In this document: one piece after another, positions 508-55,095 of the stretch
Numbering within the stretch: position 1 is the first letter of the stretch
How the letters are laid out: each line of letters begins with the position of its first letter
NCBI GenBank assembly: GCA_947623745.1
Contig: CANQHN010000008.1
Location: forward strand, 1,387 to 65,386
Direction: 5' to 3'
Length of the DNA stretch: 64,000 nucleotides
Source: an uncultured Oscillospiraceae bacterium
Lineage (GTDB): Bacteria; Bacillota; Clostridia; Oscillospirales; Oscillospiraceae
The notes under the pieces: generated by a model
What the model was told of the DNA's origin: nothing
Databases searched by the model: none
Seen by the model: the letters and a program-made list of their open reading frames with translations, nothing else
Made by a program: the position numbers and the translations under genes

Positions 508-1458
508 CTAAAGTAGGGACTGCTCCTGCTCAAAGAATTCTTGCAGAATATGAATAAATTCTGCGGCTGGCAGAGACAGCGAACGTCTTTTTAGAAAAAA
601 GGCGTACAGGTAATCAGTGCTTTCCAAATCGGGGAGAGGAAAAGCGTAAACCTTTTTTGAGTATTCGTCTCGCAATTCCTTGGAAATACCAGTATAGAAG
701 AACCTAGAATAGATTAGGCAGCCTACGCCGGAGCAAGCCACATTGAATGCCACATCAATGTTAGTACATTCCATCACAAAACGTGGTTTAATGCCGGACC
801 ACTCACAGTAGGCCTTGATTATATCCCCTGCCCATAATCCTTCACGGATATTCAGAAAAGGAAAACTCTCAAACAGTGTGAGGTCGGCCTTGGCCTGGCA
901 TGTTTCAGCCATGGATTCCGCTTCGTCACCCCAGTAGTTGTCGAAGAGTAGCCTTGGTACGATAAGAAGTTGAGATTTTTTAGCTAGAGGGATAATATGA
1001 TAATTTCCTTCGTCATCTGGCTTAGGGCCAATGGCCAAATCAACTGCGGCATAATCCAGAGATTTGACCGTTTTTTCTGGCTCGCTCTCTTCAAATTTGA
1101 CAGTGACATTTGGGAACTTTGCGAAGAACTTGGGCAGAACAGTTGGCAGAATGCTTCTGGCTGTGGTGTGTTGTATGCCAATATGCAACGATGCCGGCGC
1201 GAGCTTGTGCTGTTGGATATCAATATCGTACTGGTTGCGCAACCGAATAATCTCAGAAGCGGTTTTATAGAACAACACGCCTTCATAGGTCAGAACTAGG
1301 TCACGGCCGCGAATGAAAAGAGAGACACCCAATTCGTCCTCTATCCGAGAAATCTGTGCACTGAGAGTCTGCTGGGTAAGGTACAGCAACTTAGCTGTGC
1401 GCGAGAAGCTACCTTCGTCTGCAAGTGCAATAAAGTTTTCCAGTTCCTTTAATGTCAT
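508..1458 (-). CDS. LysR-family transcriptional regulator
   Basis: N-terminal HTH MTLKELENFIALADEGSFSRTAKLLYLTQQTLSAQISRIEDELGVSLF. Confidence 0.92.
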   Translation of the reverse strand: MTLKELENFIALADEGSFSRTAKLLYLTQQTLSAQISRIEDELGVSLFIRGRDLVLTYEGVLFYKTASEIIRLRNQYDIDIQQHKLAPASLHIGIQHTTARSILPTVLPKFFAKFPNVTVKFEESEPEKTVKSLDYAAVDLAIGPKPDDEGNYHIIPLAKKSQLLIVPRLLFDNYWGDEAESMAETCQAKADLTLFESFPFLNIREGLWAGDIIKAYCEWSGIKPRFVMECTNIDVAFNVACSGVGCLIYSRFFYTGISKELRDEYSKKVYAFPLPDLESTDYLYAFFLKRRSLSLPAAEFIHILQEFFEQEQSLL

Positions 1459-1480
1459 GATCAATGCCCTATAATTAAGG

Positions 1481-2239
1481 TCAGTATCCTAAACTGAAGG
1501 TTTCATAATTCTTTTTGAGGCCCTTTGCCAGCATATCCAAATCATACCCGATAAGCATAATTCGTACACCCTGGTTCCAGAGTTCCTGTGCACGTTGCCT
1601 GTTGGGGACGAGTATGGCGGGGGTTTTACCAGCGGCTAAAACCTTTTTTATAATGCGATTTTCCTGCTCGAAGACGGCAGCGCTGGTGTTCTGTCCCAAA
1701 AGGCCCATAGACTGAGAGAGATCACCTCTCCCTGTGGCAATCATATCCACACCGTCCAACTTCAGAATCTCATCCAGATTACGGATACCAGACAGACTTT
1801 CTATCTGTAGAGTGACTGTGACATTCTCATTGGCATCGGAAAGGTAAGGGACAATTGAATCTATACCAAACTTATTTTCAGGCATCATGCTGTACATGCC
1901 CCGCATTCCACACGGGGCATATTTTGTGTATTTTATGACCTCCTTAGCTATCTCAGGAGTATCCACATTGGGACACACTATACCGTTGGCTCCCATGTTG
2001 AGAATTTTGGTGATGTCGGTGACACTGGAAACGCGGACTTCTGTCCTCAAACCACACAGTCTGGCAATTCTCAGCATATCGCCCAGTTTATCATAACTGA
2101 ATGTGTGATGTTCCATATCTATCCGAATGAAATCATAACCAGAGGCTGCGGCCAGTTCAATCACTGTTGGATCCGGCAGTACAATGTACAATCCAAGGTA
2201 TGGAGTGTCTCGCTGGGCAATTATTTCCTTGAGCTTCAT
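1481..2239 (-). CDS. HpcH/HpaI class II aldolase family protein
   Basis: GYDFIRIDMEH, ILNMGANGIVCP, LQIESLSG, GRGDLS motifs; start reassigned to ATG 2239 with GGAG RBS. Confidence 0.85.
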   Translation of the reverse strand: MKLKEIIAQRDTPYLGLYIVLPDPTVIELAAASGYDFIRIDMEHHTFSYDKLGDMLRIARLCGLRTEVRVSSVTDITKILNMGANGIVCPNVDTPEIAKEVIKYTKYAPCGMRGMYSMMPENKFGIDSIVPYLSDANENVTVTLQIESLSGIRNLDEILKLDGVDMIATGRGDLSQSMGLLGQNTSAAVFEQENRIIKKVLAAGKTPAILVPNRQRAQELWNQGVRIMLIGYDLDMLAKGLKKNYETFSLGY

Positions 2240-2269
2240 TGTAAACTCCTTTTTACACAAATGTAAGGA

Positions 2270-2286
2270 GCTTTGTTCTATCACAA
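2270..2286. promoter_or_regulatory. Operator candidate GCTTTGTTCTATCACAA, copy 1
   Basis: Identical 17-mer at 2508-2524 in the same divergent intergenic region. Confidence 0.5.
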
Positions 2287-2507
2287 TCAGCAATATATCA
2301 TAAGAAAGATTCCTTTTCAAGTAAGACACTCAGAGGCGACAAATCGTCATTGAAGTCGAGCTTTTTTTGATGGCTGAAAAAATTGCACGTGTTAATTAGC
2401 ATATGGAGGAAAAGAAACTTTTTGAGCAAAATAAAATAATATTTGTATGTAATACCACAATTATTTGTTTGATTTTGACATAATTTAAAGCTACCCTATT
2501 ATTGGGT

Positions 2508-2524
2508 GCTTTGTTCTATCACAA
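2508..2524. promoter_or_regulatory. Operator candidate GCTTTGTTCTATCACAA, copy 2
   Basis: Identical to 2270-2286; contains TTGT-N6-ACAA dyad. Confidence 0.5.
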
Positions 2525-2567
2525 GACTGAGCACATCAATTAATTTATACTAGAAAGGAAGAGAGAC

Positions 2568-3665
2568 ATGAAAAATCTGAAAAAGATTGTAGCGTTTATC
2601 CTCTGCCTGAGCATCGTGGCGGTGTTCATGACCGCCTGTGGCCAGGCTAGCCCCAGCGCTGCGGCCTCCAACCCAGGGCCGGTATCAAGTTCCACCACTG
2701 ATGAACAAACCAATAAGCCCGCATCCGAAGATGGAGAGGTAGATTTGACTCAGGGTGACAAAGTCACGCTGAGATTTGCTACGGACCTAATTGACGCTAA
2801 CCCTGGCCAGCTTGCTTTGAACGATATTTGCGATGAGATATCTGAGCTCACCGGTGGCCGTATCACCATTGAGATGTACGGCAACTCACAACTGGGTACT
2901 GCCCCCGAGCAATTAGAGCAGTGCAATAATGGACTTATCGATATGCACTATGCTACTGGTATCTCTAACTATTGCCCGGAGTACGGCGCGTTGCAGCTCC
3001 CCTATATGTTCATGAACTATGATCATGCCAGAGCAGTGTTCACCGGCGAGATTGGCGAGTACTTCAAGCAACTTGTCGCTGACAACACTAACATGTATGC
3101 CATCCAGTTTGGTGCTATCGGCTACCGGAATCTAACAGCCAACAAGCTGATAAAGACCCCCGATGATATGAAAGGCTTGAAGATTCGCACGAGAGAGATA
3201 CCTGCGGATGTAGCCGCCTTTGAAGCACTCGGCGCTGTTCCCACGCCTATGGCTTTCTCCGAACTGTATACGGCACTGCAGCAGGGCACTGTTGATGGGC
3301 ATGATAACACGGTCACTGTTATCTTGAACAATAACCTCGATAGCGTACAGAAATACATCTACCTCAGCGAGCACACGCTGGATTCGGGAATCATTGTCAT
3401 GAACAAAGATTCTCTGGACAATCTATCTGAGACTGATCGTGAATTCATCCTCAGCGAGTTTGGCACTATGCTAGAGCGCAGCATCGCTAAGACGGAAGCC
3501 TCCGAAGAAGATGTGCTCCAGCAGATTATTGATAGGGGAAATGCTGAGGTCATCAGAGATTTTGACAAGCAGGCGTTTGCAGATGTCATGCGCACCATCT
3601 ATGTGGATTATGAGGAAGCTTATGGAAAGGAACTTCTGGATAGCATTGTCAACTGCGAATACTGA
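2568..3665 (+). CDS. dctP: TRAP transporter substrate-binding lipoprotein DctP
   Basis: Lipobox (FMTAC), DMKGLKIR, PTPMAFSELYTALQQGTVDG. Confidence 0.92.
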   Translation: MKNLKKIVAFILCLSIVAVFMTACGQASPSAAASNPGPVSSSTTDEQTNKPASEDGEVDLTQGDKVTLRFATDLIDANPGQLALNDICDEISELTGGRITIEMYGNSQLGTAPEQLEQCNNGLIDMHYATGISNYCPEYGALQLPYMFMNYDHARAVFTGEIGEYFKQLVADNTNMYAIQFGAIGYRNLTANKLIKTPDDMKGLKIRTREIPADVAAFEALGAVPTPMAFSELYTALQQGTVDGHDNTVTVILNNNLDSVQKYIYLSEHTLDSGIIVMNKDSLDNLSETDREFILSEFGTMLERSIAKTEASEEDVLQQIIDRGNAEVIRDFDKQAFADVMRTIYVDYEEAYGKELLDSIVNCEY

Positions 3666-3762
3666 TATCAATATGGTCTAGCAAAAATGTTGTCCTCTTC
3701 AATTCAACTAGTTGAAAAAAGACGATACCTCTGACTTCTATTAATAGAAAGGGGGAATCTAT

Positions 3763-4227
3763 TTGTTTAAAATTTTTGATAAGTGCCTAAAGACTGTTCT
3801 GGCCCTCATGGGCCTTACGATGATCGTCGTTGGCTTTATGCAAGTGTTTTGGCGTTATGTGCTTCACCACTCGCTGACTTGGTCGGAGGAACTGCTCCGT
3901 TATCTTTTCGTCTGGATTGTACTCGTGGGTGCACCCACGGGCATACCGACCGGATCACATGTATCGTTTGACTTAATACAGAAAAAAATACCGAATAAAT
4001 ATCACGGGTATTACCAGATATTTCTGTATGTATTAATCTTGGCCGGGTTCATGTTCATGGCAATCTGGGGTATGCCTTATGCGCTATCAAACTTTGATCA
4101 TGTTTCCCCCGCCATGCAGATCCCGTTCGGTTGGGTCATACTTGCTGTCCCGGTGGGCGGAATAGTTGGCATCGCGTATACCGTATACGCAATTACGCAA
4201 CAGGTGAAAAAGAACAGGGAGGTGTGA
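3763..4227 (+). CDS. dctQ: TRAP transporter small permease DctQ
   Basis: QVFWRYV...LTWSEELLRYLFVW, 4 TM segments, between dctP and dctM. Confidence 0.9.
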   Translation: MFKIFDKCLKTVLALMGLTMIVVGFMQVFWRYVLHHSLTWSEELLRYLFVWIVLVGAPTGIPTGSHVSFDLIQKKIPNKYHGYYQIFLYVLILAGFMFMAIWGMPYALSNFDHVSPAMQIPFGWVILAVPVGGIVGIAYTVYAITQQVKKNREV

Positions 4228-4228
4228 T

Positions 4229-5512
4229 ATGTCGACTGCCGCGATTCTCCTTATCGTTACAATGCTGGTATTCATGTTCTTAGGTGCGCCGATTTATCTC
4301 GCCATACTCTTTGCAAGCGTGGCCAGCGCGTTTGTCAAGGGCATCGATCCGTCCATCATCATACAGCGCATGTATGCCGCAAATGACAGCTTCTCCCTGC
4401 TGGCTGTCCCGTTCTTCTATATGGCGGGTGACCTGATGGTTCAGGGGGGTATTGCTAGGCGCCTTGTCGCTCTGGCAAAAAGCCTGCTGGGCCGCCTGAG
4501 AGGTGCGCTCACCATTATCGACTTTGTAGCCTGTGCTTTTTTTGGCGCTATCAGCGGCTCATCTTATGCTACCACTGCCTCAATAGGAAAGCTGATGTAC
4601 CCTGAGATGCTGCATGACGGCTATGAAAAAGGTTTTGCTGCAGTGCTCCAAGCTGTGGGAGGTACGTTGGGAGTACTTATACCGCCAAGTATTCTATGCG
4701 TTCTGTATGGCGTTGCAACGGGTACCTCCGTTGGCGATATGTTACTGTATATCGCACCTGTGGGTATAGCTACCACCCTGGCGTATATCCTTACGGCACA
4801 AGTTATGATTACCGACAAAAAGAAGGGCTATTACGACACAAGCAAAGAGAAAAAAACGGAGATTTCTAGTAAAGATATTTGGGTAAGCTTAAAGGATGCC
4901 TTTTGGGCCATACTCTCCCCGGTAATCATCCTGGGCGGTATCTATTCCGGCGTCTGCACTCCCACAGAATGTGCGGCCATCGCCTGTGTCTATGCGCTGG
5001 TCATTGGACTGTTCGTATATAAGGAACTCAATTTCAAGATCATATTTAGGTCAATAATGAGTTCGATTCTTGGTACTGCCTGCGTGACGCTGATATTTGA
5101 TTCCGCCACAGCATTCAGCTATATGATGACAGTTAACCGTATCGCCGCAAGCGTGGCTAGTTGGGTCAACAGCACGATGTCCTCCGTGGTGGTATTCTGG
5201 CTTATGGTCAATTTGGTGTATGCAATTGCCGGCATGTTTGTCGAGGGTAGCGTCACCATTACTGTCATTACACCACTGCTCTTCCCGATTGCTATGTCCT
5301 TTGGTATCAATCCTGTACACTTCGGGGTGGTTACGATTCTAAACTGCATCATAGGGACACTTACACCGCCCTTTGGCGGCGCACTTTTCATTGCCTCTAG
5401 TGTGACGGAGGTTCCAGTGACAACCTTGGTCAGGCGTGTCTGGCCATTCGTACTTGCCGGCTTTGCCCTGTGCCTAGCTATCACCTATGTGCCGTTCGCA
5501 TGGCTATACTGA
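4229..5512 (+). CDS. dctM: TRAP transporter large permease DctM
   Basis: LLAVPFF, FFGAISGSS, LIPPS, GTLTPPFG motifs; 427 aa hydrophobic. Confidence 0.93.
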   Translation: MSTAAILLIVTMLVFMFLGAPIYLAILFASVASAFVKGIDPSIIIQRMYAANDSFSLLAVPFFYMAGDLMVQGGIARRLVALAKSLLGRLRGALTIIDFVACAFFGAISGSSYATTASIGKLMYPEMLHDGYEKGFAAVLQAVGGTLGVLIPPSILCVLYGVATGTSVGDMLLYIAPVGIATTLAYILTAQVMITDKKKGYYDTSKEKKTEISSKDIWVSLKDAFWAILSPVIILGGIYSGVCTPTECAAIACVYALVIGLFVYKELNFKIIFRSIMSSILGTACVTLIFDSATAFSYMMTVNRIAASVASWVNSTMSSVVVFWLMVNLVYAIAGMFVEGSVTITVITPLLFPIAMSFGINPVHFGVVTILNCIIGTLTPPFGGALFIASSVTEVPVTTLVRRVWPFVLAGFALCLAITYVPFAWLY

Positions 5513-5569
5513 GTTACTCTGAACAAATTGGGGAGCACGCAGAGCGGGATAAAAGGAAAGGAGTATATT

Positions 5570-6331
5570 ATGGCGAAATATAAGATTTATCCTATCAGAT
5601 TAGGTATGCAGGAGGCCCGGGACAAGTCTGGCGGTACTTATCTCCAGAACTCTGGGGTGAAGGTGCCTTCGGCTATTATGGGATTCGTTATAGCCGGTGA
5701 AGGACGGCATATTATGGTCGACGTGGGCTGTGGACCAGCCCAGTGGAGCATTGAAAAACATAATTTTCATCTAACAGAGTGGTATCCATTGCCCGAGGCA
5801 CTAGAAAAGGCCGGCTTCAGTGTAAAGGACATCGACGCCGTGGTCCTGACCCATCTACACCACGACCACTGCTGGAATCTAGCAGACATTCCAAATGTGC
5901 CGGCCTATGTCCAGAAGGAAGAGGTACTCTTCGCCCTGGACCCGTTGCCTTATCAGTGGTACTACTATGAGGTGGCCCAGGTGGGAATGACACCTAGATG
6001 GTATGCGGAAATGTACCGCTTCAAGTATGTTGAAGGAGATTACGAGATATTTGACGGTATAAAACTCATTAAATTCTGCGGACATACTGCCGGTTCCCAG
6101 GGCGTCCTGGTAGACACGGAGTCGGGCAGGATTCTGATTGCCGGCGACACCGTGAATCTTTACGACAACTGGGAAGGAAAGGGCGTGTGGAAACACATCC
6201 CCAATACGATACACATCAACGTCGAGGATATGTACAAAGATTTTGAAAAGATAGAAGCTCTCAACTGCACACATATTCTACCAGGCCATGATATCCGCGT
6301 TCTCGACCACAAAGTATACCCCGTAGAATAA
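5570..6331 (+). CDS. Metallo-beta-lactamase-fold hydrolase (AHL-lactonase-like family)
   Basis: THLHHDH, GHTAGSQ, AGD, PGHD metal ligands; AAGGAG RBS before ATG 5570. Confidence 0.85.
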   Translation: MAKYKIYPIRLGMQEARDKSGGTYLQNSGVKVPSAIMGFVIAGEGRHIMVDVGCGPAQWSIEKHNFHLTEWYPLPEALEKAGFSVKDIDAVVLTHLHHDHCWNLADIPNVPAYVQKEEVLFALDPLPYQWYYYEVAQVGMTPRWYAEMYRFKYVEGDYEIFDGIKLIKFCGHTAGSQGVLVDTESGRILIAGDTVNLYDNWEGKGVWKHIPNTIHINVEDMYKDFEKIEALNCTHILPGHDIRVLDHKVYPVE

Positions 6332-6492
6332 TACTGCCTGAGTCCGTAAATTGTAAATCCCATGTGCTTTATGCTGCTTAACATAGATGAGCGCCTGCGC
6401 ATGGGATTTTTTTCGCCAAAATTGCCGCCCACATGGTAAAAACAATATGTTTACACTATAAAAAAGTTGTAGAAATAACGGAGGACAAGTAG

Positions 6493-7659
6493 ATGCAGAG
6501 TTTTACTTACAATACCCCCACACGAATGGAGTTTGGCCCTGGAAAAGAGAGCGAAGTCGGCGCACTACTGAAGGAATTTGGAGCGAAGAAGGTCCTGATA
6601 CACTACGGAGGCGGCAGTGCTGTTAGAAGTGGCTTGCTGGACAAAGTGACTGAGTCTGTGAGGAGTATCGGTCTGGACTATGTGAAAAAGGGTGGTGTAC
6701 AACCTAACCCGCGTCTATCCGAGGTTCGTGAGGCGATAGACCTGTGCAGAGCGGAAAAGGTGGACTTTATTCTTGCCGTTGGCGGCGGCAGTGTGATTGA
6801 TGCCTCCAAGGCGGTGGGATATGGGTTGGCCACCGAACGAGATATTTGGGACTTTTTCGTTGGAGAAGCGGTACCAACCGCCTCCTATCCTGTAGGCTGT
6901 ATCCTTACGCTGTCAGCTGCCGGCAGTGAGATGAGCAATTCCTGCGTCATTACAAATGACATTACTGGGCAGAAACGTGCCTGTGACAACGAATACGGCA
7001 GGCCGAAGTTTGCAGTGTTGAACCCGGAGCTTACATATTCCCTTCCAGCATATCAGACCTCCTGCGGTTGCGCTGACATTATCATGCATACCCTTGAACG
7101 CTATTTCCACAACGGCACCACACTGGATATCACCGACGGCATAGCTCAGTGTCTCCTACGCAACATGATGAAAGTTGCTCAGGAAGTACTCGAAAAACCT
7201 AACGATTACAACATAAGAGCCGAAATCATGTGGTGTGGTAGCCTCTCCCACAATGGTCTCACAGCATGTGGTGGAGGAAATGGTGACTGGGCCGTGCATC
7301 TGATTGAACATGAACTAGGTGGAAAATATGACGTCGCTCATGGCGCAGGACTCACGGCAGTATGGGGCACTTGGGCGAGGGCTGTCTGTTCCAAGCACAA
7401 GGAGCGCTTCATCAAATTGGCAAAGACTGTGCTTGATGTGGAACTTGACGGGGATGAAGCTGTAGAAGAGGGAATTCACCGTATGGAGGAATTCTTCCGC
7501 TCCATCAATATGCCTGTCTCTATCCGCGACCTTGGGATCAATCCAACGGACGAGGATCTATGGGATATGGCCAAAAAATGTACGAGATATGGCAGCGTAG
7601 GTGGTATGGAGCCGCTAGACGAGGTCGGAGTATACGAGATATACAAAACAGCGCTATGA
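6493..7659 (+). CDS. Iron-containing alcohol dehydrogenase (BdhA-like)
   Basis: GGVQPNP, AVGGGSVIDASK, AAGSEMS, HLIEHELG...HGAGL. Confidence 0.9.
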   Translation: MQSFTYNTPTRMEFGPGKESEVGALLKEFGAKKVLIHYGGGSAVRSGLLDKVTESVRSIGLDYVKKGGVQPNPRLSEVREAIDLCRAEKVDFILAVGGGSVIDASKAVGYGLATERDIWDFFVGEAVPTASYPVGCILTLSAAGSEMSNSCVITNDITGQKRACDNEYGRPKFAVLNPELTYSLPAYQTSCGCADIIMHTLERYFHNGTTLDITDGIAQCLLRNMMKVAQEVLEKPNDYNIRAEIMWCGSLSHNGLTACGGGNGDWAVHLIEHELGGKYDVAHGAGLTAVWGTWARAVCSKHKERFIKLAKTVLDVELDGDEAVEEGIHRMEEFFRSINMPVSIRDLGINPTDEDLWDMAKKCTRYGSVGGMEPLDEVGVYEIYKTAL

Positions 7660-7829
7660 GATGAGTATTTCTAGCACGAAAAAGATCTTCGCTCTGGAAA
7701 AAATGCGGTAGATAGGCATGAAGAATATATTTGAACTACAAGGGAAAATGTAAAGTATAAGAACGCTTTCCCCTTTTTCCACAACTGCATCCATTCCGCC
7801 GACCCAACGGCCCTCGAATAAACTTGCGG

Positions 7830-7858
7830 TTGAATTTTGCATGGTATTAAGATATACT
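7830..7858 (+). promoter_or_regulatory. Sigma-A-type promoter for the HipA-like gene
   Basis: TTGAAT-17-TATACT. Confidence 0.5.
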
Positions 7859-7938
7859 GTGTATTGAAAAACCGCGATGATAAGGCCAATTTCGACCTGT
7901 GAATTGTGGTGAAGCACCACGAGAGAGGGGGGGCCAGA

Positions 7939-9051
7939 ATGCTGCGGCCAAATATGAGTAACCACTATGTCCTGCTGAACCGGGACGAGCCGGTACTGGA
8001 TTTCCTATGTCGCAGGAATGAGTTCAACGAGCCGGAGTTCTTTGAACTCCAGTGGCATACGGATATCCGGCCCATTGGCTACCTTAACCTGGACTCCTTC
8101 TTGGAGCGCCGAAAAGCGCCAAAGCACCGCCGACATATCCAGCAGCTTCTAGAGCAATACGGCTGCGACGACCTAGAGGGCTTTATCCAGGTCACTTACG
8201 CGCTCTCCCTCAACGACACCTTTTGGGTGCGTCAGGATGGTTCGCCTATGGCCTGGACTGACATCTCCCTCTACACCAACGATTTCAGTGAATTAATCAG
8301 CCAGGCCGCCTTTGACGGGACGGTCAGCGAGACGGACCTGTCCTCTACCTCTCCAGAGTTTGGAACGGACGGCTACTACGCCAAGTGCTGGGTGCGGGAG
8401 GAGTCCGGGATCTGTCTTTATAAGAGCGGCAGCGCTTACTATGAGATTGAGCCCCTATCCGAGTTCCTGGCCTCTCAACTGGCAGCGGAGCTGTGTCCCC
8501 AGGCGGTCCGCTATGACATGGGCTGGTACCATGGAAAGCTCATCAGCAAATGCCCTCTGTTTACCAGCGAAGCGGTGGGACTGGCCAAGGCCAGCGCGGT
8601 GTTCGGCGGCGTTGAGCACACCATCCCGGAACTGTTGCGCTACTTCACCGAGATTGGCAGCGGGGATGCCTTCCGGCGTATGTGTGTGCTGGATGCATTG
8701 ATTCTGAACCCGGACCGGCACTATGGGAATTTCGGTGTGCTGTTTGACACCGAGACTATGGACGTCCTGGGGATGGCCCCGGTGTTTGACCACAACAGGA
8801 GCCTGTTCCCGGAGCTGGACAACGACCAGCTGGCATCGCCGGAGCGGTATCTGAACCACTGTCGGCCCCGGCTGGGCGCGGACTTCCTGCTGACGGCCAG
8901 GGGACTGCTGACCGAGGAAATCCGCAGGGACCTGGAGCGGCTGGACGGCTTCACCTTCCGCCAGCACCCCACCATCCATGCCGAGCAGGAGCGTCTGGAC
9001 GCCCTGAGCGCCATCGTCCAGAATCAGATCCGAAAAATACTGGACAAGTGA
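7939..9051 (+). CDS. HipA/CtkA-like kinase domain protein
   Basis: GTDGYYAKCW, LYK, DALILNPDRHYGNFG, APVFDHNRSL kinase motifs; start 7939 or 7954. Confidence 0.75.
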   Translation: MLRPNMSNHYVLLNRDEPVLDFLCRRNEFNEPEFFELQWHTDIRPIGYLNLDSFLERRKAPKHRRHIQQLLEQYGCDDLEGFIQVTYALSLNDTFWVRQDGSPMAWTDISLYTNDFSELISQAAFDGTVSETDLSSTSPEFGTDGYYAKCWVREESGICLYKSGSAYYEIEPLSEFLASQLAAELCPQAVRYDMGWYHGKLISKCPLFTSEAVGLAKASAVFGGVEHTIPELLRYFTEIGSGDAFRRMCVLDALILNPDRHYGNFGVLFDTETMDVLGMAPVFDHNRSLFPELDNDQLASPERYLNHCRPRLGADFLLTARGLLTEEIRRDLERLDGFTFRQHPTIHAEQERLDALSAIVQNQIRKILDK

Positions 9052-9137
9052 TTATAAAGAGGACCGACACCGCGAGAGCGGTGCCGGTCCTTCCTTTATA
9101 TATTGTTACTCATCGGGGCTAAGTGGGACCCATCCGC

Positions 9138-9770
9138 TTACCGAATAAAGTTAGTGGACTGCCGCGGCTCCTTTTCCGGCAGCCCAAATTTCTCTTTGCC
9201 TAGGGCGATGCTCCGCATCAGGAAGGTCATGTTCCAGGCCAGGGTCCGCATGGTCTGCTTGCCCTCCTCGTCCATCTCGGCGTCGCCCTTGTCCAGACCG
9301 TGGATGGAGTTCCAGTACTGGCTGGAGGCGATGGGCATCCCGCTGATGGTGAAGAACTTGTTCAGCTCATCAAAGGTGGCGGAGCAGCCGCCCCGGCGGG
9401 CGCAGGCGATGCTGGCCCCCACCTTCATGGTCTTGTCGAAGGGCGTGCTGTAGAACAGACGGGTCAGACACGCCACCAGTGTGGCGTTGGCGGAGGCATA
9501 GTAGACCGGGGAGGCCACGATCAAACCGTCGGCGGCCTCGAACTTGGGGGCCAGCTGCTGGTTCACCACGTCGTCAAACACACACTTGCCCCGCTCGAAG
9601 CAGGTGTTGCAGCCGATGCAGCCGCGGACGGCCATGGCGCCGACTTGGACGGTGTCCACCTCCACGCCGCTCTCGGTGAAGATGTGCTCCAGCTCTCTGA
9701 CAGCGATCGAGGTGTTCCCATTCGCACGGGGACTTCCATTGATGATAAGGACCTTCAACTTTTCAGACAT
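9138..9770 (-). CDS. Flavodoxin family / iron-sulfur flavoprotein
   Basis: INGSPRANGNT, CIGCNTC...C, ASPVYYAS, RRGGCS. Confidence 0.88.
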   Translation of the reverse strand: MSEKLKVLIINGSPRANGNTSIAVRELEHIFTESGVEVDTVQVGAMAVRGCIGCNTCFERGKCVFDDVVNQQLAPKFEAADGLIVASPVYYASANATLVACLTRLFYSTPFDKTMKVGASIACARRGGCSATFDELNKFFTISGMPIASSQYWNSIHGLDKGDAEMDEEGKQTMRTLAWNMTFLMRSIALGKEKFGLPEKEPRQSTNFIR

Positions 9771-9912
9771 TTCAAAACTTCCTCTCTCAGTTATCTGTCC
9801 GGCAAAACAGGTTGGATTCAGCTTACCGCATTCCAGGGGCAAAGTCAAGCCGCACGGATACGCCGCGCTGTGCAAACTCCTGATGGGCGGCAGGGTCAAC
9901 GGCGGCCCACAG

Positions 9913-10887
9913 TCAGGACCTGATCAGCCAGTCGGAAAACTCCTCCAGGGTGATCTCGCCGTCGTCGCACCGCTGTTTCTCCCGCCGGGCCTGTTCGCTC
10001 CAGGTGTAGAACTCCTCCTGGGTGACCCGCCCAGCCTTGATCCAGGCAAAGCGCTTCTTGTATTCCCGGCGGTAAATCTTGAAAATTTCGTCGCTGCTGC
10101 GCTTCCGGGTCCATTGGGCGATAGAACCCACATCCTTACAAGTGCGGCCCTTGTTGTCAATGACCCGGTCACAGTACTCCGCGCTGCTCCGGCCCAGGAT
10201 GGCAAACCAGCGGCCGCAGTTTTTGCACACCCGCATCCGTACCTCACGCCGGACACACTCCCGCAGAGCGTAGTCGGCCAGGTCATAGATGGTCTTGGGA
10301 TACAGAACCTCGGTAAAGGTCTCCTCGTCGATGGCCTCGAAACAGAGAGGCAGCGGCTGGAACTGGAAGGTGTGCAGTGTGTCCTCCCCATGGGCGCGGT
10401 AGTATGCCGCCATCCGTTTGGAGACAGACCTTTTTTCGCTGATACCGTCTATGTCCAGTACGGCGGCGAACAGGTTCCTGATCTGCTTCTGCATCGTGTC
10501 AATATTGCTGGGAATGTGCGAGATCTCCTTGTGGGGCAGCAGGTCCTGGACGGTTTCATACTTCTGCCTTTGGGCCTGCTCCAGACGGTGGGTCCAGTCC
10601 AGGCGCAGGAATTGAAAATAGATGTGCACCGGCGCCAGCTCATCCAGAACAGACTGGACCTCCACTGCCCATGCCTCGTCCCGGCTGCTGTACAGGCTGA
10701 GCAAAGCGCGGTCCATCTTTTTGAACAGCGGCTCCAGCGCCCAGATATCCAAGTCAAGAAATGCCATCAGACTTTCCGGAAACGGGAAGTCTTTTTTTAT
10801 TTCCGCATCGCCGCTGATCTCCTGTTCCCCAAACAGGAAGTACTCCTTGCCTTCGGAGATGTAGGTTCGAAATGTGTAACCGACCAT
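9913..10887 (-). CDS. Zn-finger protein of Firmicutes mobile elements (DUF6076-like)
   Basis: CKNCGRWF...YCDR...TC near C-terminus; GGGGAGG RBS before ATG 10887. Confidence 0.6.
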   Translation of the reverse strand: MVGYTFRTYISEGKEYFLFGEQEISGDAEIKKDFPFPESLMAFLDLDIWALEPLFKKMDRALLSLYSSRDEAWAVEVQSVLDELAPVHIYFQFLRLDWTHRLEQAQRQKYETVQDLLPHKEISHIPSNIDTMQKQIRNLFAAVLDIDGISEKRSVSKRMAAYYRAHGEDTLHTFQFQPLPLCFEAIDEETFTEVLYPKTIYDLADYALRECVRREVRMRVCKNCGRWFAILGRSSAEYCDRVIDNKGRTCKDVGSIAQWTRKRSSDEIFKIYRREYKKRFAWIKAGRVTQEEFYTWSEQARREKQRCDDGEITLEEFSDWLIRS

Positions 10888-49192: not shown

Positions 49193-50689
49193 TTATTCAC
49201 GCGCTACGCAGCGAAGCTGATGGCCGTGCGAGCTTCCACTCCATTCATCGGGTATCGCTCTTCTTGTTCCACGTCCGAGTTCTATATCCAATGCGTTTGC
49301 TCCATAGCCATATGAATTCCAGTAAAATCCATAGTTCGCCCATGTCCACGCTCCATCTATTATTACAGCATTAGTATTAAATTGCGGCATGTTATTACTT
49401 CTATCCTCCACAAGTTGCGAAAAATCGTTGCTGTATGCTTCGGCAAGAGCAGTAAATTCTCCGTTTATAGGCAAGCTCCACCCTTTTGGACAGACGGATT
49501 CTTCAGCCGCGCCTTGCTCCGTAAGTTTCTCACTGCTTCCTGCAGTGGCAGCATTCCATGAATAATAAGCATTTCCTTCTTCGGAAATATAGAAATATGG
49601 GTCATGCCACGACGAGTGAAAAGTAAATGCACTTTGAGGTATTTCGAAGGCACAATCCTTAACATCTGAGTCAATTGGCGTCAATTTTCGATCGGTCAAT
49701 TTTTCATCGCCAAATCGCAGGTCTTGTGTCATCCAGCATTTGCCATCTTTCAGTTTTGCCACCGAATAAGTATTGCCGTCTCTCGCATCAACTAGGGTTG
49801 TGAAGCCACCATCCGACAATGAGCTACATTGGAAAGTTTGCATCCATCGTTGACTCCCCTCTGGCTTCCATACGCCGAGCAGTGTAGCTTCATTCTCTCC
49901 GTCGGCCAAAGGATACCCAGTCCCGGCTTTGTAGACAATATTATCTGCGCAAGCGCCGGTCTCAGCATTTTTCTTGCACCATCCTTGAAAAACATAGTTT
50001 GGTTTTTTCTGATTGGTGTTTAGTAACGTTACAGTAGGCTCAGTAGTTGTGCCTTGAGAAGTGTTATCTGTTGTACCACAGTTGCACCCGTCATATGAAA
50101 TGTTATAGTTTACTGTATTTGCTGTGGCAGTTATCGTAAAGGTATTAGAATAATTACCCGCGGGTTGGTTTGTATTCACTTTAGCACCAATAGTAAAGCT
50201 GTAATCATGATTACCACTTGCATTAGTCGTATCTAGCGTTTCCTTCGTTGTGGGTCCAGGTTGAAAATTATTATTGCTTATATTAGCATTATCTTTACCG
50301 AACTTGTAGCCCCAGGCATTATCTGGGAAGTTTGTTTTACTTTTCGCCTCAGTGATAGACGCTATAGTATTGCCTTCTTTGGAGGTTAATACGTTCTTAC
50401 TATTCTTAGACTGAATACTTAAGACATATCCCCAATGTGCATCGCCTTTTACGGATACTTTACCGCTAGCCTCAGAGAACCCACCGGACGCAGAAGCATT
50501 AACTGTGAGTGGATTGGTGGGGATTTCTATGGTGAGCGAGGCGGCGGAGACAGTCTGCGCCCCAAGCGCAGATAATGCAGCCATGACCACCACCCCCACT
50601 AAGCCCCATTTCTGTGCCAACGGGAGAAGTATTGAGCCGCTGGCACAGAGATGACGCTTAGTTTTGATACATTTGGGGATGATTTTCAT
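49193..50689 (-). CDS. Surface protein: N-terminal TM/signal, beta-rich domain, InlB B-repeat-like segment, FISUMP (Fib_succ_major-like) C-terminal domain
   Basis: LVDARDGNTYSVAKLKDGKCWMTQDLR, YYSWNAATAG, SVCPKGWSLP, LRCVA; NYVFQGW. Confidence 0.78.
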   Translation of the reverse strand: MKIIPKCIKTKRHLCASGSILLPLAQKWGLVGVVVMAALSALGAQTVSAASLTIEIPTNPLTVNASASGGFSEASGKVSVKGDAHWGYVLSIQSKNSKNVLTSKEGNTIASITEAKSKTNFPDNAWGYKFGKDNANISNNNFQPGPTTKETLDTTNASGNHDYSFTIGAKVNTNQPAGNYSNTFTITATANTVNYNISYDGCNCGTTDNTSQGTTTEPTVTLLNTNQKKPNYVFQGWCKKNAETGACADNIVYKAGTGYPLADGENEATLLGVWKPEGSQRWMQTFQCSSLSDGGFTTLVDARDGNTYSVAKLKDGKCWMTQDLRFGDEKLTDRKLTPIDSDVKDCAFEIPQSAFTFHSSWHDPYFYISEEGNAYYSWNAATAGSSEKLTEQGAAEESVCPKGWSLPINGEFTALAEAYSNDFSQLVEDRSNNMPQFNTNAVIIDGAWTWANYGFYWNSYGYGANALDIELGRGTRRAIPDEWSGSSHGHQLRCVARE

Positions 50690-50773
50690 GACCTACCTCG
50701 CTTAATATTGTTTGACGCAGGTCATTTCTGTTACTTTTTGCGCTGGTGGGGCTTTCGCCCCATTCACTATAAC

Positions 50774-50927
50774 AAAAATGGCACCGCAAGGGTGCATTAC
50801 TATATTATCTATCGATCAACTCGCCCAAAGGCATGCCGTAAATAGACAACCAGTACCTTGTGGTGCCATTTTTATTTATTTACGGCTATAAATGTGCTGA
50901 TCGTTAATATAAATAATATAGTAATGC
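50774..50927 (-). ncRNA. Candidate structured 5' leader RNA
   Basis: Three interleaved inverted repeats (19+8, 10, 18 bp); begins about 7 nt after TG-n-TATAAT (50934-50942). Confidence 0.5.
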
Positions 50928-50972
50928 TCTTTCATTATAGCACACATTTTTATTTGTGCGAAAAAAACGGCC

Positions 50973-51039
50973 TTCAGTGAGGCGGTCTGGCCGTTGAAGA
51001 TTTGCTAAATTTACATGGATAATTTGAAAATAGGTGTAG
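50973..51039. repeat. 67-bp att-like direct repeat R2
   Basis: TTTGCTAAATTT and GGATAATTTGAAAAT shared with R1. Confidence 0.75.
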
Positions 51040-51096
51040 TTTATACTGCTTCAATGAATGCTGAAACTAAGATCGCTGCGGTATTTTGCTGCATAG

Positions 51097-51128
51097 GAAA
51101 CTCCCCCGGAGAGAGTTGGGGGAGTTTC
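51097..51128 (-). terminator. Terminator-like hairpin after the cell-wall-anchored gene
   Basis: GAAACTCCCCC...GGGGGAGTTTC. Confidence 0.65.
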
Positions 51129-51171
51129 ACAATTTAACCTTTCTAACTCAGAGAGCTAGAAGCTCAGAGAG

Positions 51172-52287
51172 TTAGCGGTTGGATTTCTTGGCTACGAAAG
51201 CGGTAGCACCAAGGCCGAGCAGAGCTACGGTAGCAATTGTCAGGTAAGTGGCAATCGTATCAGCAGTGTTCGGGTTCTCAGCGTCGTCATCGGTTGGGTC
51301 TTCTGGCTCGTCGGTCGGGTCAACAACAGCATCGTCAATGGTGTTGTAGGCAGTCAAAGCCGCCAAATTAGCTTCGGTCGAAGTCTTGCCGTCAACAGAC
51401 CATTCAGCAAAGGTTACTTTGCCATTGTTGTTGTAAACATGCTTATCTTCGCCTTCGGTGGACAAATCAACGTTAGCGAGAACGAAGCTCTTCAGAGCAC
51501 CATACTTCTTTGCATCGTCTTTATTTTTTGGCGAGAGACCAAACACGGCTTTGTAGTCGAGAGGAGCGGTCACTTCTTTACCATCAACAGCGATAGTGTT
51601 ATTCTCTTCACTTGCAAGCGTGCTCTTAGAGACGTTCACGGTAATAGCATTGGCGGGAGCATCAGCAGACTCAATCAACAGAGCATTGCCAGTGCCGGCG
51701 TTAAGGGTAGCGCCTTTAGCAATAAAATCACCACCGGAAACCTTCACAGCATAGCCATCAGTGTCAATGAGACCGTTAACGGTAGTCTTACCGGCGCTCA
51801 TCCAAATACCATTGGCACCATTGATTTCACCATTAACCGTCACTTCGCCGTTGCTGTTGATTGCAAGTGCTTTGCCGCTATCAACAGTAACATTCTCACC
51901 GATAGTAACCGTTGCTTCGTCGCCAACAACCTTAATCGCATCGCCAGTTACATTAGCAAACGACACAAGAGCTTCACTATCGGAAACAATAGTAAGTTTA
52001 CCGTTGATAATCAACGAATGACCTTTGAATTTCAGTTCACCGCCGTTGAGGTCAAGGGTAACATCCTTATTGATGGTTACATCGCCAGAGGCGAATGTAT
52101 CATCATTCTCATTAAAATCGTCGGTAAGCTTGCAGGTCTTTGTTTCTTCTGTTGTCTGAAGACAACCGCGAAGTGTCTGGACTGCATCGTATTGCGTAGC
52201 TGCTTGTTCTTCTGGCGCAGCGAACACGCTTGGTACTATAGCCATACCAGCAATGAATGCCGCTACGGGAATAATAGATTTCTTCAT
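51172..52287 (-). CDS. Secreted beta-helix-like protein with LPXTG-like anchor (NPNTAD)
   Basis: Signal peptide ending VFA; acidic DPTDEPED linker; NPNTAD, TM helix, KKSNR tail. Confidence 0.78.
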   Translation of the reverse strand: MKKSIIPVAAFIAGMAIVPSVFAAPEEQAATQYDAVQTLRGCLQTTEETKTCKLTDDFNENDDTFASGDVTINKDVTLDLNGGELKFKGHSLIINGKLTIVSDSEALVSFANVTGDAIKVVGDEATVTIGENVTVDSGKALAINSNGEVTVNGEINGANGIWMSAGKTTVNGLIDTDGYAVKVSGGDFIAKGATLNAGTGNALLIESADAPANAITVNVSKSTLASEENNTIAVDGKEVTAPLDYKAVFGLSPKNKDDAKKYGALKSFVLANVDLSTEGEDKHVYNNNGKVTFAEWSVDGKTSTEANLAALTAYNTIDDAVVDPTDEPEDPTDDDAENPNTADTIATYLTIATVALLGLGATAFVAKKSNR

Positions 52288-52501: not shown

Positions 52502-53782
52502 CTACAGATGAACCTCTGCCTCTGTACCATCTTTGAAGTGAAATACCATCCGCTGGTCTTGGTATACCGTAACGGACTCCACCGTTTCCCGCCAACGCTG
52601 GTCACTGTAGGAACAGTCGGAATCACCGATTATCTTGCGGGCAGCTTCAAATGCGGCCTGTATCTCATGCTCACGCAGAATCGGCGTGGCGCATTTATCG
52701 GTTTTTCCATACCTGTGGTTACAGTACCATACGGTATAGCGATCTGTGTTCCCCCGGTTGTGCCAGACCTTGCTGCCATAGAAGCTTCCGCAGTCTCCGC
52801 AGACGAGTTTTGCGCTAAAGGGATAATCATCCCGGAGCCGCGCAGCATATGGCTTGCGTAAGGCGATCATCTCCTGTACACGCTCGAAAGTTTCCGGGTC
52901 GATGATCGGTTCGTGAGAATTGCGCACGATATACTGTTTCATTTCCCCCCGGTTTTTCCGAACCTTCTTCGAGAGGTAGTCTACCGTATAGGTCTTCTGG
53001 AGGATAGCCTCTCCCTTATATTTCTCATTGGTGAGAATGTTCTCCACGGTAGAGGTGGGCCAAATTGTCCGCCCTTTGGGTGTAGGGATACCGCGCACCG
53101 TCAGAGACTTTGCGATGTGGCGGACCGTCATGCCTGAAAGGAACATATCGTAAATCTCACGCACAATTTTCGCTTCTTCCTCTACGATTTCCGGTCTGCC
53201 ATCCGGCCCTTTCCTGTAGCCGAGGAAAGCAGAGTAAGCAATGTGGACTTTGCCATCCTTCATGCTTTTTTGCTGTCCCCAGCGGACGTTTTCGCTGATA
53301 GAGCGGCTTTCCTCCTGCGCCAATGAGCTCATGATGGTAAGCATCACCTCGCATTTGGGATCGAAGGTGCGGAGGTTTTCTTTCTCGAAAATCACCTCCA
53401 CGCCTGCCTCCTTTAGCTGGCGGACAGTTGAGAGCGTGTCCACCGTGTTCCGGGCAAACCGGGAAATGGATTTTGTCAGGATCAGATCGATCCCGCCACT
53501 TAAGGCAAGGTTGATCATCTGATTGAATCCATCACGGTTTTTGGTATTGGTACCAGTGATCCCGGCATCGGAAAACACGCCAATGAACTCCCAGAGAGGA
53601 TTGCCCTTAATGTACTCGGTGTAATATTGCACTTGCGCTTCATAGCTGTTTTGTTGCTCATCCTGCTCGGTAGAGACACGGGCGTAAGCCGCTACGCGAA
53701 GCCTTTGCGTGACAGGGGAATCAGACCGCTCAACAATCTGTTTGATCGGCTCAATTTCCTCTACTTCTGGCGTATAATTCAC
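52502..53782 (-). CDS. Large serine recombinase 1
   Basis: VAAYARVST, TKSISRFARN, Zn ribbon CGDCGS; GTG start at 53782 in GTGA overlap with AAGGAG RBS. Confidence 0.92.
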   Translation of the reverse strand: MNYTPEVEEIEPIKQIVERSDSPVTQRLRVAAYARVSTEQDEQQNSYEAQVQYYTEYIKGNPLWEFIGVFSDAGITGTNTKNRDGFNQMINLALSGGIDLILTKSISRFARNTVDTLSTVRQLKEAGVEVIFEKENLRTFDPKCEVMLTIMSSLAQEESRSISENVRWGQQKSMKDGKVHIAYSAFLGYRKGPDGRPEIVEEEAKIVREIYDMFLSGMTVRHIAKSLTVRGIPTPKGRTIWPTSTVENILTNEKYKGEAILQKTYTVDYLSKKVRKNRGEMKQYIVRNSHEPIIDPETFERVQEMIALRKPYAARLRDDYPFSAKLVCGDCGSFYGSKVWHNRGNTDRYTVWYCNHRYGKTDKCATPILREHEIQAAFEAARKIIGDSDCSYSDQRWRETVESVTVYQDQRMVFHFKDGTEAEVHL

Positions 53783-55095
53783 TTTAACTCCTTCCGGTGT
53801 TGTTCCAGTGCCTTTTCCCGTGCGGCCTGCCGCATCTCCGGGGTCCAGCTTTCCCGCCTTGAATGGTGTTGCCATATAACGTCAACCTCCTTTCCGTTTT
53901 TTAGATAGTAGACAAGATGATAATGCTCTGGAACTACGATTTTCCAAATACTGGCTTCTACGGTTTCCCAATCCAGATGTTCTGTACCAAGGGTTTCCGC
54001 CGTTTTTTCGATCAGAATCTTCTCGGGGATATTCTGTGCAGGGCATACCTGTTTACCCAGCTTGTTATAACTGGGGCAAACCCATATGTTCCTTTTGCCG
54101 TTCTGTCCACTTGTTTTGCAACGCTGATAGATCCGTCCGCAAAGGCCGCAATGAATCAGCCCCCGAAACAGAGACTGTCCCACCTCATTATTCTGCGTGG
54201 GCTTGTAGTATTGTGATTGGCGTCTTTTCATCTCATTTTGTACTGCATCGAACACCTCCTGTTCAATAATCGGCTCGTGGCTATGCCAAACACGGTACAT
54301 TTTCACCTCCCCATGATTTTCTTTTGTCTTTTTGGTGCGAAAATCTGTACGATAGGTTTTTTGGAGGATCATGTTGCCGGTATAGTCTTCGTTGGTCAGA
54401 ATATGTCGAACCGACGAGATATTCCAAGGCCTTCCCAATTGCGTGGGAACTCCGCGCAACGACAGTTCTTTGGCAATGTGGGTCAATCCGTGACCAGAAA
54501 GGTACTCTGCATAAATCCAGCGTACAATTTCTGCTTCCTCCGGTATAACAGATAATCTGCCATTTTCCAGGTGGTATCCTAACATCCGTCCCACCCACGG
54601 TTCACCTTTCTTGAACTTCTTCTGTATCCGCCATTTCTGGTTTTCACTGGCGGATCTGGCTTCTTCCTCTGCATACATGGCGAGAAGCGTAAGGAGAAGC
54701 TCACCATCCGGGCTGATAGAGTGCATCTGCTCTTTCTCAAAGTAGCAGTCGATGCCGAGGTCTTTCAGTTCCCGAATCGTTTGCAGTAGGATGACCGTAT
54801 TCCGGGCAAACCGGGTGACGGACTTCGTGATCACGAGGTCGATTTTCCCGGCGCGGCAATCTACCAGCATCCGTTGGAACTCCGGACGGTTGATGATCGT
54901 GCCGGAGATCCCGTTGTCTGAATAGATGTTTACCAGTTGCCAATCAGGATGCTTTGCGACATACTTTTCATAATAGTCTATTTGGGCTTCCAGTGAATGA
55001 AAGGCCGCATCCTTATCTGCCGAGACGCGGGCATAAGCCGCGACACGGGTGATCTTACGTTCCTTTGATTTTGCAGGTATCTCAGTGATTTCCAT
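53779..55095 (-). CDS. Large serine recombinase 2
   Basis: VAAYARVS, TKSVTRFARN, IHCGLCG. Confidence 0.92.
   Translation of the reverse strand: MEITEIPAKSKERKITRVAAYARVSADKDAAFHSLEAQIDYYEKYVAKHPDWQLVNIYSDNGISGTIINRPEFQRMLVDCRAGKIDLVITKSVTRFARNTVILLQTIRELKDLGIDCYFEKEQMHSISPDGELLLTLLAMYAEEEARSASENQKWRIQKKFKKGEPWVGRMLGYHLENGRLSVIPEEAEIVRWIYAEYLSGHGLTHIAKELSLRGVPTQLGRPWNISSVRHILTNEDYTGNMILQKTYRTDFRTKKTKENHGEVKMYRVWHSHEPIIEQEVFDAVQNEMKRRQSQYYKPTQNNEVGQSLFRGLIHCGLCGRIYQRCKTSGQNGKRNIWVCPSYNKLGKQVCPAQNIPEKILIEKTAETLGTEHLDWETVEASIWKIVVPEHYHLVYYLKNGKEVDVIWQHHSRRESWTPEMRQAAREKALEQHRKELK

Follow-up and report, generated by a model that had tools for sequence, protein, structure and literature searches.

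A strongly conserved structured RNA leader upstream of FISUMP genes in gut Saccharibacteria and in a conjugative element of an Oscillospiraceae bacterium

We analyzed a 64,000-nucleotide stretch of DNA (hereafter the window) from an uncultured Oscillospiraceae bacterium (NCBI GenBank assembly GCA_947623745.1, contig CANQHN010000008.1, positions 1,387 to 65,386 of the forward strand), and found that the gene for a 498-aa FISUMP protein on its minus strand is preceded by a member of an undescribed, strongly conserved structured RNA family that lies outside Rfam. The structural conclusions about this leader are firm: its 5' end forms a long rod, the apical loop of the rod is complementary to a short segment just past the rod's foot, which we call the hub, and both the rod and the loop-hub pairing have been maintained by compensatory evolution on the sense strand. 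With regard to function, positions 50688-50962 of the minus strand are probably a promoter followed by a cis-acting 5' leader of the FISUMP gene, in which the hub would switch both transcriptional read-through and access to the start codon.

Structure of the leader in the window

A sequence-only reading of this region had described a promoter, an outer stem with a bulge, an inner stem whose loop is complementary to a segment outside the rod, a GAAA-tetraloop hairpin and a hairpin over the ribosome-binding site; all of these were found where it had placed them on the minus strand. The elements are given below in the order in which an RNA polymerase would meet them (SD, Shine-Dalgarno sequence).

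50934-50962, minus strand: sigma-70-type promoter, with -35 TTCGCA at 50962-50957, a 17-nt spacer and extended -10 TGcTATAAT at 50942-50934
50909-50927, minus strand: 5' arm of the outer stem P0, GCAUUACUAUAUUAUUUAU, at the extreme 5' end of the predicted transcript
50896-50903, minus strand: 5' arm of P1, CGAUCAGC, after a 5-nt bulge (50904-50908)
50887-50895, minus strand: U-rich 5'-side bulge at the P1/P2 junction, ACAUUUAUA (family consensus UUUUUAUA)
50877-50886, minus strand: 5' arm of the 10-bp stem P2, GCCGUAAAUA
50856-50876, minus strand: apical loop of P2 and element (1), AAUAAAAAUGGCACCACAAGG, able to pair with the hub
50835-50844, minus strand: 3' arm of P2, UAUUUACGGC, pairing with 50877-50886
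50813-50820, minus strand: 3' arm of P1, GUUGAUCG, forming 8 bp with one G-U
50794-50812, minus strand: 3' arm of P0, AUAGAUAAUAUAGUAAUGC, ending in GC(AC), which also belongs to the hub hairpin
50774-50795, minus strand: hub, element (2), GCACC CUUGC GGUGC CAUUUUU, which can form its own hairpin and U-run or pair with element (1)
50747-50762, minus strand: GAAA-tetraloop hairpin UGGGGCGAAAGCCCCA, an optional insertion
50688-50725, minus strand: initiation-region hairpin, 9 bp between AUGACCUGC (50717-50725) and GUAGGUCAU (50688-50696)
50696-50699 and 50687-50689, minus strand: SD sequence GAGG and AUG, partly covered by the hairpin at 50688-50725
49193-50689, minus strand: gene for a protein of 498 aa, secreted or anchored, in which a FISUMP domain and a Listeria-Bacteroides repeat are present

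The promoter has 10 of 12 consensus matches as well as the TG, and its geometry, the only guide here, would place +1 near 50927-50930. The two arms of P0 (19 nt) are 95% complementary, and the sole imperfection is a G-U pair on the minus strand. Together with the G-U in P1, and with an A-C on the same strand as the mismatch between loop and tail, this is just what the sequence-only reading had proposed. The rod P0-P1-P2 spans approximately 127-134 nt. The claim of the sequence-only reading that the leader is highly structured was also borne out: the minimum free energy (MFE) of the 251-nt window RNA was -89.5 kcal/mol, compared with -54.1 +/- 4.6 in 200 dinucleotide shuffles, none of which folded as well (z = -7.75). 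Predicted energies in the window favor a combination of the rod (-52 kcal/mol), the duplex between loop 50856-50876 and 50771-50791 (21 nt, 90% complementary; -30.6 kcal/mol) and a masked start (-15.7 kcal/mol for the hairpin over SD and AUG), in which unpaired probabilities were about 0-0.3 for the first two bases of the AUG and for all but one base of the SD.

The 498-aa protein matched TIGR02145 at E = 5.8e-12 (46.6 bits, cutoff 41.65), and its matches to PF09479 (25.7 vs 27 bits) and PF09603 (22.3 vs 33.9 bits) were both below the Pfam curated cut-offs.

Distribution of the leader family

An 18-mer, CCTTGCGGTGCCATTTTT, which is common to the three copies of the leader in the host genome, was scanned through one genome per prokaryote species. 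Exact matches were found at more than 119 loci, nearly all of them in metagenome-assembled genomes (MAGs) of Candidatus Saccharibacteria / Nanosyncoccus from the guts of ruminants, rabbits and other animals, with many loci per genome; the remainder were in a few Clostridia / Oscillospiraceae MAGs, plus a handful of chance matches. The true matches shared one architecture: P0, P1, the U-rich bulge on the 5' side, P2, the apical loop, the 3' arms, the hub, and finally SD and start codon. In the family, the apical loop reads AAAUGGCRCCGUAAGG, and the hub, GCACC(C)CUUGCGGUGCCAUUUUU, lies 0-3 nt past P0; SD and start codon follow in the same orientation, a median of 69 nt past the hub. The loop-to-hub distance had an interquartile range of 47-53 nt, and the median lengths were 28 bp for P0+P1 and 14 bp for P2. 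In 92 of 105 copies, an extended -10 (TGnTAnnnT) ended 4-6 nt ahead of the start of P0; thus, judging from promoter geometry, the rod should be the extreme 5' end of the mRNA family-wide. TIGR02145 (FISUMP) was detected in 33 of 42 downstream proteins across the family.

We then represented the family by a covariance model (R1, 154 positions) built from alignment A1 (MAFFT, 100 leaders). The seed consisted of copies with one exact hub 18-mer, so that more distant relatives may be missed by the searches reported here. The window copy (50768-50931, minus strand) matched positions 1-154 of 154 with 93.9 bits (E = 2e-18), and the other two host copies scored 107.8 bits (the paralog on contig 2) and 95.3 bits (C8:70112-70252); all three were in the seed. 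With a full-length match, a -10 element next to P0, complementarity between loop and hub, and a FISUMP gene downstream, the window copy has every character of the family.

Each of four Saccharibacteria genomes of 0.8-0.9 Mb contained 42-53 R1 matches and two others 19-26, some of the matches in these genomes being weak antisense echoes; one Saccharibacteria genome, G001, had at least 38 at E <= 1e-8. The leader was present in 19 of 40 species of the genus of G001, in 3 of 41 genomes of its family and in 3 of 121 of its class. Three Clostridia/Oscillospiraceae MAGs had two matches each, a metagenome scan for Firmicute-type copies with GAGGTAGGTCATGAAAAT gave 52 unrelated loci of which none matched R1, and no leader was found in 36 other genomes of the genus of the window's host. 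The leader family is typical of one genus of animal-gut Saccharibacteria. Given this distribution, the window copy is a cassette of gene plus leader that was moved horizontally and that belongs to a Saccharibacteria family specific to a lineage.

Two further features of the Saccharibacteria copies were observed. Numerous leader matches, in G001-G005 and other genomes, were within ~300 nt of contig ends; MAG assemblies from this group tend to break at the leader repeat, and FISUMP genes may be undercounted. In addition, one subfamily (L029, L036, L038, L054, L112) has ~220 nt between hub and start codon, with a conserved block ...GCATAATTCATTATGTTTCGGGAGCTACGTGATGTGATAAT... that may be a further RNA element or a small open reading frame (ORF).

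Selection for RNA structure

The sequence-only reading had proposed covariation in homologous leaders as a test, and this test was positive for P0, P1 and the loop-hub pairing, all of which were compensated in more than 100 leaders. Two alignments were used, A1 and A4, the latter consisting of 99 matches realigned with R1 and including 18 diverged copies without the exact 18-mer. MAFFT combined with RNAalifold on the 100 leaders gave only the loop-hub helix, the variable stems being misaligned; the P0 and P1 columns were taken from a pair-frequency search and then tested as explicit structures, and P2, which resists column-wise alignment, was evaluated sequence by sequence. In A1, P0 (16 pairs) was 93% paired and all 16 pairs had changed on both sides, as had four of the four P1 pairs, whereas 35-45% were paired when the partners were slid by 1-3 columns, and none of 500 shuffles equaled the observed values. 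The T columns of the U-rich bulge were nearly invariant in the same alignment. In A4, 95.4% of the cells were paired (38-48% with slid partners; again 0 of 500 shuffles equaled this), and both-side changes were observed in 26 of 37 pairs. P0 was 97% paired here, with both-side changes in 14 of 16 pairs, and the four P1 pairs had again all changed on both sides.

The loop-hub helix (17 pairs) was 94.1% paired in A4, with both-side changes in 8 of 17 pairs, and each of its 12 core pairs was formed in at least 96 of the 99 leaders. For example, GC occurred 84 times and AU 13 times at one position, and A-U, G-C and G-U occurred 74, 12 and 11 times at another. With diverged hubs such as CCUCGUGGUGCCGUU, CCUUGUGGCGCCAUU, UCUCGCGGUGCCAUU and CCUCGCGGUGCCAAU, the loop has changed to match, so that 14-15 of 15 pairs are regained; overall, 17 of 20 diverged hubs formed 14-15 of 15 pairs with their own loop and the other three formed 12. 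Every rod forms P2, each with a different sequence. Even among the three host copies, the outer stem is wholly different in sequence with perfect complementarity kept (GCATTACTATATTATTTAT... vs GCAACACTTAGTAAAA...), and P2 shows compensated changes when the window copy is compared with the contig-2 copy (TCGCAAATAGA / TCTATTTGCGA in the latter).

The strand on which this pairing is maintained was equally clear. Of 99 non-redundant rods, 98 were more stable in the sense orientation than as the reverse complement (mean difference 12.0 kcal/mol, Wilcoxon p = 7e-18), and the helices contained 446 G-U pairs vs 16 A-C 1x1 mismatches, the form in which G-U pairs of the opposite strand would appear. 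This strand asymmetry and the excess of G-U pairs point to selection as RNA structure and not as invertible DNA. Furthermore, an inverted arrangement of either repeat pair was absent from about 100 copies, and a second, independent metagenome assembly of the window locus had a leader that was letter-for-letter identical and in the same orientation. We therefore reject interleaved invertible DNA, which the sequence-only reading had kept as its alternative.

A terminator-like hairpin at the hub

The hub itself can fold into a hairpin of 5 bp (GCACC/GGUGC) followed by CAUUUUU, with a predicted energy of -7.2 kcal/mol. A terminator scan marked a terminator-like site at 50795-50781, consisting of GCACCCTTGCGGTGC and then CATTTTTGTT, between promoter and ORF. 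This hairpin takes its 5' arm from the end of P0 and its 3' arm from the segment that pairs with the loop; because its arms are shared in this way, the hub hairpin excludes both a closed P0 and the loop-hub helix. The leader thus has the features of an attenuator with an intrinsic terminator, namely a G+C-rich hairpin and U-run before the ORF and an alternative, mutually exclusive pairing that is supported by covariation.

Comparison of diverged copies provided additional information. A U-run of at least four was kept in 17 of 18 variant hubs outside the search pattern, whereas its partner, the A-run of the loop, was much less constant, so that conservation of the U-run goes beyond what pairing requires. 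Moreover, hub-hairpin pairs were compensated in leaders L146 and L151. We read the hub as a terminator/antiterminator arrangement in which the loop-hub pseudoknot would be the antiterminator; termination is a prediction from sequence.

A second promoter across the hub (TTGCAC-17-GTTAAT) was considered and rejected on account of its poor -10-like hexamers. It was also observed that the hub sequence CACCCCUU resembles the 3' tail of 16S rRNA, CACCUCCUU, family-wide (50791-50795 and 50856-50867 in the window). Loop and third element (see below) carry SD-like AAGG(A/G) cores, and one may speculate that the hub could act as an internal anti-SD mimic.

Pairing around the start codon

Most of the Saccharibacteria leaders contain a further sequence almost identical to the loop (AAGAUGGCACCGCAAGG and similar), which we call the third element; it lies 13-32 nt past the hub and can pair with it over 9-17 consecutive bases. 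The platform between hub and start is also more complementary to its own initiation region (-12.8 kcal/mol) than to the initiation regions of other leaders (-10.6; p = 1e-6) or to shuffles (-8.7; p = 3e-14). Where the third element is strong, it overlaps the platform segment complementary to the initiation region in 39 of 41 leaders. As a separate observation, numerous downstream ORFs in Saccharibacteria open with AUGCGG (MR...) or AUGGGCCAC (MGH...), which are complementary to the third leader element and suggest an RNA-level constraint on the first codons.

The Firmicute-type copies, including that of the window, have a diverged platform in which the 5' arm of the SD/AUG hairpin (AAAUGACCUGC in the window, AAAUGGCCUGC in L063) replaces the third element. 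The arm of L063 pairs well with the hub, and that of the window only moderately. This hairpin was kept in six of six Firmicute-type copies, with wobble-compatible changes only, whereas the GAAA hairpin was missing from three of the six (the contig-2 copy, L056 and L063).

Proposed mechanism and alternative explanations

Based on these observations, we propose, with somewhat more confidence than doubt, that the leader is a multi-state device controlling transcriptional read-through and start-codon access; as a regulatory mechanism, this is a reasoned proposal from sequence. The hub would be the switch point for pairing. When the loop holds the hub as a pseudoknot and P0 is closed, the hub hairpin with its U-run would be blocked and RNA polymerase would read through; when the pseudoknot is absent, the hub hairpin would take GCAC(C) from the base of P0 and transcription would stop. 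After read-through, a second layer could act on translation, since in most Saccharibacteria copies the third element may pair either with the hub or with its own SD/start region. Such a relay of four elements would have a masked state (loop with hub, third element with start region) and an open state (hub with third element, start region free). In the window copy, AAAUGACCUGC would close the 9-bp hairpin over SD and AUG in place of the third element.

Several points weigh against this proposal. First, the hub hairpin is weak (5 bp, -7.2 kcal/mol) and two bases separate its stem from the U-run; in L141, only 4 bp of it are left, in a shifted register, and loop and hub still pair perfectly. Second, R1 was seeded on an exact hub 18-mer, and hub conservation is partly an effect of this selection. 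Third, the sequence is compatible with either coexistence (as a pseudoknot) or alternation of the rod and the loop-hub helix. P2 together with a loop-hub helix of 15-17 bp is about as long as P0+P1, and a folded-back "paperclip" with all helices coexisting is thus geometrically conceivable. Fourth, SD/AUG accessibility changed only modestly and non-uniformly between MFE folds with and without the hub (0.51 vs 0.39). Finally, the window copy has no clear third element, and its loop-hub helix contains an A-C mismatch on the minus strand inside the 12-nt core.

What the leader might respond to is suggested by its pattern of conservation. The conserved nucleotides are those of the loop, the hub and the U-rich bulge, and loop and hub form a plain helix together. 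Among paralogs of one genome, loop and hub are nearly invariant and the stems diverge freely, and in other genomes, most copies share another matched variant of loop and hub. Near-invariant loop and hub with free stems make a shared trans-acting protein or RNA likelier than a small-molecule ligand. A more tentative extension, which we regard as possible but doubtful, is that ultrasmall gut Saccharibacteria have a genome-wide regulon with the leader as its cis element, where one shared trans factor would read loop and hub and set the choice or number of lectins, and from which the cassette would have been exported to Firmicutes on conjugative elements. If so, the regulon would comprise dozens of FISUMP lectin genes (at least 38 and up to ~50, roughly 5% of genes), each with its own promoter and leader, and would amount to RNA-based coordination or diversification of the episymbiont cell surface.

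Among the alternatives, the most serious, though we think it unlikely, is a constitutive structural leader without switching: rod and pseudoknot merely protect or compact the 5' end of the mRNA against nucleases, and the start hairpin damps translation. The position of the rod at the predicted +1 in 92 of 105 copies, its high stability (-52 kcal/mol in the window) and its conserved total length, as seen in the narrow loop-to-hub distance (interquartile range 47-53 nt), would all fit, and no conserved junctions resembling a ligand pocket stand out. However, a plain stabilizer needs no invariant loop and hub sequence, and it leaves unexplained both the conservation of the U-run beyond its pairing partner and a third element that pairs with the hub or the initiation region.

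It is less probable still that the main product is a short RNA, in which case termination at the hub U-run would free the ~150-nt rod, and its loop would act in trans on paralogous hubs or titrate a loop-binding protein, coupling the FISUMP genes. The terminator-like hub fits this idea, and loops and hubs that are near-identical within a genome, with different matched variants among genomes, are the pattern expected of a shared trans interaction. Yet the differing hub among L141 and L142-L144 of genome G242 has its own matching loop, which argues for pairing in cis; in addition, every copy has an SD and start codon ~70 nt on in the same orientation, and no free-standing copies were seen.

A selfish repeat, dispersed among intergenic regions and folding only by chance, like miniature inverted-repeat transposable elements or repetitive extragenic palindromes, would account for the high copy number and for the frequent breaks of MAG assemblies at the leader. 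We consider it highly improbable: the context is fixed, with a promoter always on one side, a FISUMP-type ORF on the other and the same orientation throughout, the stems are not near-identical copies but saturated with compensated changes, the leader is absent from plasmid and phage collections, and no conserved terminal repeats or target duplications were noticed, although no systematic search for them was made.

Least probable of all is the interleaved invertible DNA rejected above, with its two inverted-repeat pairs as sites at which neighboring serine recombinases flip the gene on and off: inverted repeats do lie between promoter and ORF, as in the cwpV and flgB switches of Clostridioides difficile, and two large serine recombinase genes are present 1.6-4.2 kb upstream, but the stems are strand-asymmetric (98/99; 446 G-U vs 16 A-C), their arms differ wholly between paralogs and are still complementary, about 100 copies and the one independent assembly compared show no flipped arrangement, the dozens of copies per Saccharibacteria genome cannot, by copy number, each adjoin a recombinase gene, the recombinases sit with a relaxase and a coupling protein like integrases of conjugative elements, and the inner repeat pair is just 64 bp apart.

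Novelty and comparison with known systems

The region 50300-51400 of the window was compared with Rfam 15 using cmscan (4227 models, including c-di-GMP-I/II, c-di-AMP and T-box; E up to 10), and only sub-threshold chance matches were found, the best being mir-228 (25 bits vs a threshold of 45). The Saccharibacteria copy L028 likewise gave only miRNA-hairpin noise, and six 8-kb loci had no matches at gathering thresholds. Thus, no family reached its threshold in the comparison that the sequence-only reading had called for. In the literature on FISUMP and on structured RNAs in Saccharibacteria, we found no description of this leader RNA; a preprint on Pam pili (PMC13278184) deals with other surface filaments. 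The earlier suggestion that an adhesin gene is headed by an undescribed RNA resembling an attenuator or riboswitch is supported by the lack of an Rfam match, by more than 100 covarying leaders, by G-U pairing on the sense strand only, and by a promoter and FISUMP genes found family-wide.

With attenuators and riboswitch platforms (trp and pyr; preQ1 and SAM-II), the leader shares mutually exclusive pairings around a short hairpin and U-run in a 5' leader, a pseudoknot between loop and 3' tail that decides a downstream hairpin, and a second layer masking SD and AUG. In contrast with them, it has no Rfam match, leader peptide or recognizable ligand pocket, its sensing part is a long rod with freely varying stems, and it has been amplified to dozens of copies per 0.8-Mb genome before one paralogous gene family. 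Stabilizing 5' stem-loops, such as the E. coli ompA and B. subtilis aprE leaders, also place a stable helix within a few nucleotides of +1, but they are short simple hairpins without a conserved loop, a complementary 3' hub or a U-run. The invertons of C. difficile (cwpV/flgB) and Bacteroides are similar in that inverted repeats lie between promoter and surface-protein gene, recombinases are near, and one arrangement has a terminator; the leader differs in that its repeats are RNA-selected, with strand-specific G-U pairs and compensatory divergence, and have no flipped copies.

A resemblance to the T-box was also considered. The T-box sequence is UGGNACCGCG, and loop and third elements, (A)UGGCACCGC(A/G), resemble it; GCCA of the hub would pair with UGGC like the 3' end of tRNA with the T-box bulge, although in the leader the UGGC partner is encoded in cis. 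T-box ancestry of the UGGCACCGC motif was rejected, as RF00230 did not match even at E up to 10, neither a Stem I nor a specifier loop was recognized, and the genes encode surface lectins instead of having to do with aminoacyl-tRNA or amino acids. The resemblance is treated as a coincidence.

Saccharibacteria and other bacteria of the candidate phyla radiation live attached to host bacteria, and to our knowledge almost nothing is known of their gene regulation. A single leader type stands before roughly 5% of the genes in some 0.8-Mb genomes, and no cis-RNA regulon known so far would be larger in proportion to its genome; it would also give a handle on the control of surface molecules with a probable role in host attachment. 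As an RNA, the leader is new and well supported, has more than 100 natural variants and is unusual in its architecture, the tip of the 5'-terminal rod pairing with the rod's own foot. The window copy shows a gene and its proposed switch traveling together across phyla on a conjugative element, and its Firmicute-type version is open to testing in laboratory strains.

Genomic context

The leader locus is the end of an integrative conjugative element. It lies in a stretch of 44-51% G+C within a 3.05-Mb genome of 61.7% G+C, with the host hpf gene on one flank and, on the other, a relaxase gene, a type IV coupling protein gene and the following pair of genes:

52502-53875 and 53779-55095: two large serine recombinase genes, 1.6-4.2 kb upstream of the leader

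The host genome contains exactly three copies of the leader, all in mobile-element contexts: that of the window, a second on the same contig 18 kb off (C8:70112-70252, plus strand) and a third on contig 2, adjoining a tyrosine integrase gene. Each precedes the gene for a paralogous protein, with 32-39% identity to the window protein. No match to the leader was found by BLASTN in the plasmid or phage collections.

Several other genes and sequences were observed around these copies. The contig-2 leader is adjoined by a gene (positions 7535-10306 of locus L009) for a 923-aa protein with 11 DUF4379 treble-clef zinc-finger repeats (E = 1.8e-182). The second FISUMP paralog (locus L010, C8:64000-82000), which is in the same mobile element as the window copy, is surrounded by defense-type cargo, including genes for an NB-ARC/STAND NTPase, an Abi_C protein, a ResIII helicase and an N6/N4 DNA methylase. 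In the window, co-cargo with the FISUMP gene includes a gene at 51172-52287 (minus strand) for a 371-aa protein without a Pfam match, whose C-terminus (NPNTAD, a hydrophobic segment, then KKSNR) may be a sortase-like or other anchoring signal. Approximately 45 nt past the stop codon of this gene is a 10-bp hairpin, AAACTCCCCC/GGGGGAGTTT (51098-51127, minus strand). A further hairpin, ACGGCC...GGCCGT followed by T7 (50961-50995, minus strand), is directly before the -35 of the leader and looks like the terminator of the 371-aa gene; its 16-nt loop caused the terminator pattern scan to miss it. Finally, a second low-G+C stretch (44-50%, compared with 58-70% in the middle of the window) at positions 1-8000 may be another acquired region.

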